Program-made: the position numbers
Shown: positions 45,001 through 48,000 of the stretch, in pieces
Position numbering within the stretch: position 1 is the stretch's first letter
Layout: each line of letters opens with the position of its first letter
Assembly: GCF_013167455.1 (NCBI RefSeq)
Contig: NZ_CP038328.1
Source: Escherichia coli O157:H7
Lineage (GTDB): Bacteria; Pseudomonadota; Gammaproteobacteria; Enterobacterales; Enterobacteriaceae
Length of the DNA stretch: 64,000 bases
Reading direction: 5' to 3' (one strand)

Positions 45001-48000
45001 CCACCCACAGCTGGTCAGGTCGTTCTGCCACGAACTGACGGTTTACGCGGTCGCCTGCGGCAACGGCTTTCCGGCTGATGGTCGTACGGACCTTTTTACC
45101 CCGGAGAACACCGGCAAGTCCCATAACCGCCATGAGACGTGCCACTGTACATCTGGCCACCCTGATTCCTTCCCGTAACAACTGACGCCAGACTTTACGC
45201 ACACCGTACACCTGATGATTTTCATCGTATACGCGCTGTATCTCTCTCTTCAGCCAGTCGTCGTGCTGCGCACGGGCACTGCGTTTATCCGGATGATGTC
45301 GCTGTTGCTGACAATGGTAATACGTTGACGGGGCAATATGCAGTTCGCTGCATACCGGTCCGACCCCGTACTGCTCACGCAGCTTATCCAGCAGTGGCAT
45401 CATTTTTTCCAGAGGCGGTCGAACTCCGCCTTCGCAAAATAAGCGGAAGCCTGGCGAAGGATATCGTTACTGCGGCGCAGTTCACGATTTTCACGTTCCA
45501 GCTCTTTCAGACGCTGACGTTCAGCGCTGGTGAGCCCACCATCACCGCCCCCGGTATCCCGCTCATGCTGGCGAACCCAGACACGCAGAGTCTCCGGCGT
45601 ACAGCCAATCTTTGGGGCAATGGAACAAATTGCCGCCCACTGTGAGTCATATTCATCCTGACTTTCCAGAACCATACGAATCGCCCGCTGACGGACTTCG
45701 GGGGAAAAACGAGTATTTTTAGTCATCCTGTTTACCTCTTTCTCAGGGAGTTTAGTCTCCAGGATTTCCGGGGCGGTTCATCCAGATAAATAGCACTCCC
45801 CTGTTCGGGGTCCATCCCTCTTCTCCCTGCGCGCTACTTAAGTATTTTTGATTCTATTCCGGCGCCGTCCGGAACTTCAAACGCGTTGAAAATAAAAACA
45901 AAAACCCGCCGAAGCGGGTTAAGTGCGGGTGCGTTGAGGATGCCTGACACATCAGAGGTGGCGAGGGATTTCTCCCCCGCCTGGTCTCTTACTCCTCAGG
46001 TTCGTAAGCTGTGAAGACAGCGACCTCCGTCTGGCCGGTTCGGATTCGTACCTCGCAGAGGTCTTTCCTCGTTACCAGTGCCGTCACTATGACGATTAAA
46101 CAGATGACGATCAGGGCGATTAACATCGCCTTTTGCTGCTTCATAGCCTGCTTCTCCTTGACCTTTCGGTCCGTAAGAGGCAATCTATATGTGACGAGCA
46201 TATAGGGGCCTCACTTCGATTTATAGTCGGGTGGGGCTTTTATCTATCTGCCGTTGGTGTTCATGCCCGAGGCAGATAGCCTCAAGCACCCGCAGCAATC
46301 CTACTTAACTCTGCCGTTACAGCAAACCGTTTTCGCCCGATATGGGAATTCCCATATCGGAATGAATTCAGTTCACCTGGCGAGGCTTAGCGTACAATTT
46401 TTTCCGTTTTGTGAGCTGCCCCTACATGCCGCTGGCGCGGCATCCGGAAAAAGAATCCACGTCCTGAAGGACGAGGATGTCAAGTGCCTTTCCTGGTCCA
46501 GCCATATTTTTTGAATGCAGGCGCCGCTTCATCGGTTTGTAGCCATTCTGCAAATCGACGGGTTTCATCATTTGCATCCTGACGTACTGTAATGTTCATA
46601 TCACGCCATATCACGTAGTCTGGCGCTATTTCCACGACATCACCAATTTCTGGATTACTGGCTGCCCAGTCAGCCCAGGTTATCCAGACATCTGCTCCAG
46701 GCTGATTCTCAAGAGCCTTACGTGCAGTTCCGCTATTGGGCGCATATAAAATAATATTTTTTCGGATTGCGGCGACAGTTTCTATATTCCCTTTACGTCC
46801 GGCAATATCTTCCCAGACGCCAGTGCCTGATGTATTACTGGTACCACCACCATCATTAACAATTACGCCAATCCCAGGTCTGGTCAGGTCGTCAATACTC
46901 CGGATATTTTTAGGATTACCTTTCTTTACCAGTAAAATACTTTTTCGCAGATAAAGAGGCTGAATATCTTTTTCACTGAAGCTGTCTTTATGGTCCCGAA
47001 TGATAGCCAGAGCAGATTGTTCTGATGCGCCAAACAAGATATCTGCATTTTTTTTGGCATCTTCATTCCATTTGTTCTGTGGGCCGTAATGAACGTTCAC
47101 TATAATACCTGTTTTTTCGGCATAAAGTTTGGCTGCATCAAGCAAGGCTGTATGCGGGCCACCAGGACCATACAGATTGATATCAGCATAAGCAGCAGAA
47201 GACAGGAATATTAAAAAACCTGCCATTATGTTCCTCATAAAAAACTCCTTTTATTGGTTATCATGAAATAAAGTTATAAACACTACAAATAATATATATT
47301 ACATCCAGATAAACTTATCCGACTTTACCTCGTGCATAGCTTGTTATTTAAAGTCAACAAAATAAGGAAAATTATACGCATATTGAAGAGTATAAACCTT
47401 ACATGTTGATTACATTTTTGTAATCAACATCCTGTTTGGAATAGCCAGCCTTTAATGGATAACTATTTCTGACAATGCAATGAGTATAATCAAGTCCATC
47501 TTCCACTGAGAATTAGAGGCGGCATGCTTTTTCCGGCTCTTGCCGGATATCCGTAATTGTCCATAATCTGCAGATTTATACCTTCTGCATGACCTGTCAG
47601 CGAAAATTTGTCCGGTGTTTCTACGGGAATGACATCAAAAGTTACACGCACTCGCGTTACCGTGTAGACCTACTTTCCTGCACTTGCAAGATCACAGTGG
47701 TGTAACCGTAACAGGAATTTATTCTCTGGACCGGCAGTAAATCCCTGAGTGGCGTGGTTCCCATATCAATTTCCCGCCAGGCAGCCTCCATTGCCAGCGT
47801 ACAGGCTGGAGCCATGACCTGCCCTTTAAATCTGGCCCGACCATCCCACCGGACGTGTTCTTCTCCCCTGAACTTAGGTACAGTCATCTCCAGTGGCACA
47901 AAAGTGTCAGCGCCATAATTTTTGACCGTTATCGCGCTACGGATATTTTGTTGACTGGTGAAAATCACCCCGCAGAATCAGGCTTATTCCCTTAACCTGG

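Follow-up and report, generated by a model that had tools for sequence, protein, structure and literature searches.

The virulence-associated gene paa (also known as adfO) of Escherichia coli O157:H7 is preceded by a perfect inverted repeat which, with a probability we would put at about 75%, is an operator for the response regulators HprR and/or CusR within an activator-dependent promoter, such that this orphan binding protein would be induced through the two-component systems HprSR and/or CusSR. This reading is drawn from a 64,000-nucleotide stretch of DNA (NZ_CP038328.1; referred to here as the window, with positions counted from its first letter) and from related loci in which the element and its promoter architecture have been conserved. 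The gene itself is not new, as the open reading frame (ORF) at 46480–47238 on the minus strand is the known prophage-borne paa/adfO, which is in wide use as a virulence marker for Shiga toxin-producing (STEC), enteropathogenic (EPEC) and enterotoxigenic (ETEC) E. coli. The paa upstream region contains the following features:

47403–47430, no strand assigned: perfect 12+4+12 inverted repeat, found by reading the sequence, whose conservation between lineages is confined to the inner 6+6 bp.
47409–47424, minus strand: core ATTACA-AAAA-TGTAAT of an HprR/CusR-type box (GATTACAAAAATGTAATC), identical at 15 of 16 core positions to the published box as read in MG1655.
47395–47403, minus strand: third half-site TGTAAGGTT, 5 nt downstream of the box and in the −35 position, the same 9-mer at the same spacing as in the K-12 hiuH promoter.
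47371–47376, minus strand: predicted −10 hexamer TATAAT, invariant in the E. coli alleles, with a predicted start near 47364.

The arms of the repeat, ATGTTGATTACA (47403–47414) and TGTAATCAACAT (47419–47430), are separated by TTTT, and the repeat starts 165 bp upstream of the paa ATG at 47238. In 60 shuffles of the 64 kb which preserved the dinucleotides, inverted repeats with arms of at least 12 bp and a spacer of no more than 8 bp numbered 0.03 per shuffle on average. An earlier note on this DNA had described a perfect 10-bp inverted repeat and proposed it as a likely regulator binding site; the repeat is real (47405–47414 and 47419–47428) but its arms are in fact 12 bp long, and the proposal itself is upheld in so far as the sequence constitutes a candidate HprR/CusR-type box. 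The note had also allowed that the palindrome might match nothing and lack conservation, and what we find is a palindrome which is conserved and fits a published box.

Read in the orientation of the gene, the element is ATTACA-AAAA-TGTAAT-CAACA-TGTAAGGTT, 18 nt, TATAAT. No −35 match was seen at the paa promoter, and it is because of this absence that a simple sigma-70 promoter scan called nothing at the site of the palindrome. A perfect −10 hexamer with no −35 in turn suggests that the promoter probably depends on a phosphorylated regulator.

The published HprR/CusR box, CATTACAAAATTGTAATG, lies within the hiuH-msrPQ promoter (PMC9302797; bioRxiv 10.1101/2021.09.09.459708), which is activated both by HprSR, a sensor of HOCl and H2O2, and by CusSR, a sensor of copper (PMC9302797; PMC8249747). 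The hiuH promoter in MG1655 reads C-ATTACA-AAAT-TGTAAT-G-CTGC-TGTAAGGTT, 19 nt, TATCCT, hiuH, and has in common with paa the series ATTACA-N4-TGTAAT, 5 nt, TGTAAGGTT, 18–19 nt and a predicted −10, with the same orientation to the gene. The two differ in one spacer base (AAAT in hiuH, AAAA in paa) and in the −10, which is the better one in paa (TATAAT versus TATCCT). Unlike that of hiuH, the paa box is found on mobile DNA before a virulence-associated gene, and its symmetry in the O157 allele reaches further, to arms of 12 bp. The cusC-cusR CusR box shares the same three-hexamer geometry (ATGACA-ATTT-TGTCAT-TTTTC-TGTCAC), but has TGTCA half-sites where those of paa are TGTAA, and a matrix derived from paa gives cusC only 2.8 bits.

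The core ATTACA-AMAA-TGTAAT-N5-YGTAAK, with a −10 hexamer 21–22 nt further on, is common to eight paa lineages: the O157 prophage, the IncF plasmids pSTEC388_3, pCFS3246-1 and pZ1323, the metagenome sequence L206, the IMG/VR sequence L128, an island of E. coli no107, and Providencia alcalifaciens, whose Paa homologue has 67% protein identity. The box core is near-invariant, the variants being an ACAA spacer in no107 and TGACA in the first hexamer of L128, and every lineage has the −10-like hexamer at this distance from the third hexamer (TGTAAG/T) across intervening DNA which is non-homologous. Within the 400 bp upstream of the gene, the sole stretch of the window which can be aligned with L128 is a 28-nt element (blastn-short E 1e-7), and the sole stretch which can be aligned with Providencia is a 15-nt core (blastn-short E 1e-4).

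A pattern scan of metagenomes recovered a second copy of the element before an unrelated operon whose products are a DUF305 protein and a beta-propeller protein of the YncE family, with the same spacing to the −10 hexamer as in paa. This operon is found on E. coli plasmids such as pPE164, where it lies immediately upstream of paa, and on Escherichia albertii plasmids where paa is not adjacent. The DUF305 family is copper-associated. We note that in some ETEC plasmids DUF305-YncE is directly upstream of paa, giving two tandem boxes 1.9 kb apart, and that the DUF305-YncE elements are located at 2564–2592 and 4448–4476 in L223, 2314–2342 in L224, and 6035 and 4150 (minus strand) in L215.

A 30-nt weight matrix was built from ten paa and DUF305 sites only, with no K-12 sites included, and its top-scoring site across the 4 kb of the hprRS-hiuH region was the hiuH box (33.7 bits). 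The runner-up at 9.5 bits was the hiuH palindrome on the other strand, and the background of 128 kb (the 64-kb window on both strands) reached 6.9 bits at most, self matches excluded. An AT-rich region where promoter-like hexamers are common, together with the empty promoter scan, might suggest a box which resembles the published one by chance or survives as a non-functional relic, with paa constitutive or transcribed from some other promoter. We find this very hard to accept given a phylogenetic footprint across lineages with unalignable flanks, the recovery of the independent hiuH site so far above the background maximum, and a −10 spacing which is fixed in six independent intervening sequences (those of the E. 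coli alleles, L128, no107, Providencia and two DUF305 promoters).

The palindrome might instead function as RNA, as a terminator or insulator against read-through from the upstream prophage early genes or fimbrial remnant, for it would form a stable 12-bp stem with a 4-nt loop downstream of same-strand ORFs, and folds at −16 kcal/mol (z = −3.4). It is not followed by a U-tract, was not called by the terminator scan and has no match in Rfam. Across the lineages the arms measure 12, 10, 9, 6, 6 and 5 bp, leaving a stem of only 5–6 bp in some of them, and no compensatory changes were seen in the arms in the lineage alignment. The decay of the arms without compensation, the missing U-tract and the lack of an Rfam match point to a DNA site and not an RNA hairpin, and of the explanations considered here this one has the least to recommend it.

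The same folding energy would suit a recombination or hairpin structure marking the edge of a mobile paa cassette, in which case the palindrome would be a recombinase or transposase target and no transcription factor site. The homology between the prophage and plasmid modules does stop ~12–20 bp beyond the palindrome, and the prophage junction with a fimbrial fragment is ~12 bp from it, but a minimal functional module would be expected to stop just past its most distal operator. The outer arms have decayed with no compensating changes and L128 no longer has an intact palindrome, while the part which is conserved is asymmetric and consists of the right arm, the third hexamer and the fixed distance to the −10. 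Furthermore, the element also stands before DUF305-YncE and the chromosomal hiuH, where there is no cassette edge, and no recombinase is common to these contexts. We therefore regard a cassette-edge structure as highly improbable.

Less improbable, though still unlikely, is that the site belongs to another regulator with similar boxes, such as a plasmid- or island-borne regulator of the PcoR/SilR/CopR type, or that it is a repressor operator lying over a weak promoter, and not an HprR/CusR site. OmpR-family copper regulators generally have similar boxes, the copper association of DUF305 would fit one of these, and a weak sigma-70 promoter may be seen in ATTACA/ATGACA, 17 nt, TAAGGT. This last reading leaves the conserved downstream TATAAT unexplained, and the match to the HprR/CusR-activated hiuH promoter takes in the third half-site and the −10 spacing as well as the box. 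In addition, paa travels without a PcoR/SilR/CopR-type regulator; no regulator gene of any kind was found travelling with the paa module in the contexts examined, and a core host regulator would therefore seem to be needed. The hprS-hprR genes are found in 5406 of 5426 complete E. coli genomes (at least 80% coverage). Sites for FNR, CRP, TyrR, EvgA, PhoP, PhoB, ArcA, CpxR, RstA, OmpR, ToxT/Rns and GacA/UvrY were set aside for wrong spacing or orientation, and an OmpR/RstA lead was dropped when the csgD promoter gave no matrix match.

Returning to HprR and CusR, we infer that phosphorylated HprR (YedW) and/or CusR, both OmpR-family response regulators, would bind 47395–47424 with TGTAAGGTT occupying the −35 position, and that the bound regulator would recruit RNA polymerase to the −10 at 47371–47376. 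Transcription starting near 47364 would produce a paa mRNA with a 5′ untranslated region (UTR) of ~126 nt (the corresponding figure for hiuH is ~25 nt). Reactive chlorine species or H2O2, acting through HprS-HprR, and/or copper, acting through CusS-CusR, would turn on the gene, and Paa would be exported by Sec and serve as an orphan binding protein at the surface or in the periplasm.

We count in favour of this model that paa transcript levels are condition-dependent, with transcription up more than 4-fold in early stationary phase (PMC2241611) and higher in rumen and rectum contents (PMC8524897); paa is not under Fur control (PMC4382993). A number of points weigh against it. The published changes in expression neither indicate nor exclude the HprR/CusR pathway, and genomic SELEX (systematic evolution of ligands by exponential enrichment) in K-12 is unable to detect the paa site. 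The box is missing from some paa relatives, namely the chromosomal E. albertii and Edwardsiella genes and a 74% allele on pJNE23-011, and conservation is the only grounds on which the paa −10 was assigned. No link between paa/adfO and HprR, YedW or CusR was found in a literature search which covered few subscription journals.

Several sequences recovered alongside these sites were judged to be unrelated to paa, and these were pattern-scan matches in low-GC phages, in one conserved phage sequence and in one high-GC family. In four environmental metagenome contigs (L200, L207, L213 and L216; GC ~0.6) with no Paa homologue, a conserved stretch of ~40 nt, CTGACAACAATGTAATCAAGCCGTAATRTTGACGACGGG, fits the search pattern, and is probably unrelated. 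Seven related IMG/VR phage contigs (L136, L139, L146, L161, L171, L178 and L189) have in common the sequence TTCGACAAAAATGTAATYAAATTGTAATGAAGCC, which resembles the element in part, and no Paa gene is found near it. Two other sequences do contain the paa upstream region and depart from it abruptly. In L191 (IMG/VR; 7559–7581) it breaks off after the box, before the −10 is reached, and gives way to TGAACCGCCCCGGG, which resembles an IS629/IS1203-type end and, if it is one, would be a natural disruption of the promoter, and in the human-gut metagenome contig L217 (62–88) it ends in CTGTCTCTTATACACATCT, presumably Nextera adapter sequence, which would make this an assembly artefact.

The paa gene and the mobile module around it are made up of the following features:

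46480–47238, minus strand: paa coding sequence (adfO, Z2053/ECs1772), encoding a PEB3/AcfC-family orphan periplasmic binding protein, 100% identical to RefSeq WP_001449026.1.
47185–47238, minus strand: Sec signal peptide, residues 1–18, with cleavage after AYA, by sequence reading.
47245–47249, minus strand: ribosome-binding site AGGAG, by sequence reading.
46460–46473, minus strand: terminator-like hairpin CGTCCTTCAGGACG with a T-rich tail right after the paa stop, found by consensus scan and kept in the plasmid alleles.
46412–47442, minus strand: mobile paa module, which comprises the terminator, gene, 5′ UTR, promoter and box and has counterparts on IncF plasmids at 86–89% identity.
47443–47932, minus strand: fragment of a PapH-like fimbrial minor-subunit pseudogene, truncated at both ends and frameshifted with an internal stop (a RefSeq pseudogene).

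The gene product is a protein of 252 amino acids, and the identical RefSeq protein is labelled 'AcfC family adhesin Paa'. Its N-terminus reads MRNIMAGFLIFLSSAAYA|DINLYGPGGPH, where the bar marks the predicted cleavage and the residues after it match the mature family start D(I/V)NLYGPGGPH, and residue 19 aligns with residue 2 of the mature PEB3 chain 2hxw_A in the PDB match. In phmmer searches of the PDB the protein matched PEB3 (1.2e-81, residues 11–248) and AcfC (3.5e-81) over its full length, the solved structures being 3fir, 3fjg, 2hxw and 4jb7, and the Pfam profile matched was SBP_bac_11 (6e-34). The invariant motifs YGPGGP, GNPK, SNTSGTGVWED..GR, DAWITW, YRD and GW are all kept in Paa in an alignment of 17 family sequences from Gamma-, Beta- and Alphaproteobacteria, Bacteroidota and others. 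On this evidence Paa belongs to the PEB3/AcfC family of type II periplasmic binding proteins, and its export by Sec is predicted.

The earlier note had thus rightly recognised a signal-peptide-bearing solute-binding protein, but its comparison with ModA does not hold at the family level, where the TIGR01256 profile scores 18.3 bits against a cut-off of 62.5 (and NF002920 17.7 against 470). Sulfate/thiosulfate-binding (Sbp/CysP) identity fares no better, with NCBIfam models scoring ~22 bits where the cut-offs range over 155–308 (NF008022, 22.6 bits against 288; TIGR00971, 21.5 against 155.5), and the sulfate-binding proteins 1sbp and 6ddn were matched in the PDB only at ~1e-4 over ~100 residues. 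At a broader level ModA and Sbp/CysP do fall with Paa in one Pfam family, SBP_bac_11, and in the fold class of type II binding proteins.

The note was also correct that Paa has no permease or ATPase partner, as no such gene was seen among its neighbours in the window, and neither modBC nor cysTWA were found beside paa in the window neighbourhood or at related loci. Using a crude motif test for an ATP-binding cassette (ABC) ATPase signature (Walker-A plus LSGGQ within 6 kb), we found the signature to be missing from 21 of 25 Paa/PEB3/AcfC-family loci from many phyla, whereas 10 of 17 distant ModA/sulfate-like loci do carry one. Orphan status is therefore the norm for the family and not a sign of decay. 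The degraded ORFs beside paa, which had been offered as part of a decayed operon, are real and correspond to the RefSeq frameshifted pseudogene, but this is a fragment of a PapH-like fimbrial gene and a decayed transporter operon can be ruled out.

Like PEB3 of Campylobacter jejuni and AcfC of Vibrio cholerae, Paa has a signal peptide and the invariant motifs, lacks a cognate ABC transporter and has a phenotype in colonisation. A contribution to adherence or colonisation and a small anionic ligand have been ascribed to the Paa/PEB3/AcfC family (PMC8565820, PMC5976639, PMC12469816), and adherence is reduced in paa/adfO mutants (PMC8565820). PEB3 binds phosphometabolites such as 3-phosphoglycerate (PMC12469816) and AcfC has been described as a periplasmic, sulfate-binding and chemotaxis-related protein (PMC5976639). 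PEB3 residue K135 is T in Paa in the PDB alignment. Regulation differs among the three, since acfC belongs to the ToxT regulon and peb3 is under BumR, whereas paa has the predicted HprR/CusR box.

The paa gene is carried by 623 of the 5426 complete E. coli genomes, and in the window it occupies the nin-equivalent region of a lambdoid prophage of the Sp9/CP-933O/PPompW type (Sp9 being that of Sakai), in agreement with the nin-like region and prophage 'moron' suggested in the earlier note. In O-island 57 (OI-57) the gene known as paa, adfO, Z2053 or ECs1772 adjoins the hok-like ckf (PMC8565820). The window copy has the same amino acid sequence and the same prophage position by ckf as Paa/AdfO of OI-57/CP-933O/Sp9, and differs in having an additional IS3-family element beyond hok. 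The neighbours of paa are hok/sok, the fimbrial pseudogene, a small DNA-binding-protein ORF, a DUF1627 gene and replication gene P. A 2.1-kb region is 100% identical in many STEC chromosomes, where RefSeq lists hokD, a frameshifted 'fimbrial protein' pseudogene, DUF1627 and replication protein P as neighbours.

The alleles on IncF plasmids of porcine and bovine ETEC and STEC are 86–89% identical to the window, with homology limited to the stretch from ~46412 to ~47442, and these retain AATAAAAGGA in the region of the ribosome-binding site. Intact PapH-like genes which are 86% identical to the fimbrial fragment occupy the second position in pap-like chaperone-usher operons (these copies are located on plasmid A of E. 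coli C8 and on the GZEC065 chromosome), which suggests that paa once lay beside such an operon before capture by the prophage. The fimbrial copy in the window is missing its 5′ end and has had its last 13 codons swapped for paa-module DNA, and was inserted jointly with paa. It should be noted that the Prokaryotic Genome Annotation Pipeline (PGAP) runs the pseudogene through the palindrome; we rejected the possibility that this is native fimbrial coding sequence, as the intact homologues end in ...PLKAGDYYAALRFKLDYE followed by a stop and the window switches to paa-module DNA after PLKAG. The prophage backbone resumes at the small DNA-binding-protein ORF (47937–48101) on one side and at hok/sok (at or below 46333) on the other, indicating a composite insertion of ~1.6 kb in which the paa module is joined by the fimbrial fragment and a further 78 bp.

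The 78 bp between hok/sok and the downstream end of the paa module contain a second perfect palindrome, CCGATATGGGAATTCCCATATCGG (46337–46360; 24 bp with no spacer), which is not terminator-like and co-occurs with prophage-borne paa (579 genomes). The hok/sok-type toxin-antitoxin locus itself consists of a Hok-like ORF on the minus strand (45989–46201), which is the 'ckf' always reported together with adfO, and an Rfam match to sok (46142–46291; 103.9 bits). Just beyond it is the IS3-family element (44513–45726, minus strand; orfA 45400–45726 and orfB 44513–45403), which strain PV15-279, though otherwise identical, lacks at this point, while it has IS1203 copies elsewhere in the prophage. In P. 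alcalifaciens (L009, 4475–5617) and E. coli no107 (L195, 3954–5269) the box-bearing paa homologue adjoins tyrosine recombinase/integrase genes, which places paa in these two on integrative islands and not in prophage nin regions or on plasmids.

The gene paa is already known, and an HprR/CusR box before a mobile virulence-associated gene would be a further site of a known class. The near-exact box with the full layout of the hiuH promoter nonetheless suggests a concrete hypothesis linking host stress signals to a colonisation factor, in which neutrophil-type oxidants (HOCl and H2O2) or copper would turn on a factor borne by prophages and enterotoxin plasmids. The K-12 work reportedly classed HprSR and CusSR as near single-target systems, and if our reading is correct, these two-component systems with few K-12 targets would have gained extra ones on the mobile DNA of pathogens. 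We see an even chance that paa and the plasmid DUF305-YncE operon together form a horizontally mobile extension of the HprSR/CusSR regulon, with Paa induced by host hypochlorite, peroxide or copper in the inflamed or ruminant gut and the 'adhesin' phenotype being conditional and stress-triggered, not constitutive. Paa would then be grouped with periplasmic stress-response proteins (MsrPQ, HiuH, DUF305 and YncE-like proteins), and this may help in reinterpreting the PEB3/AcfC/Paa 'adhesins'.

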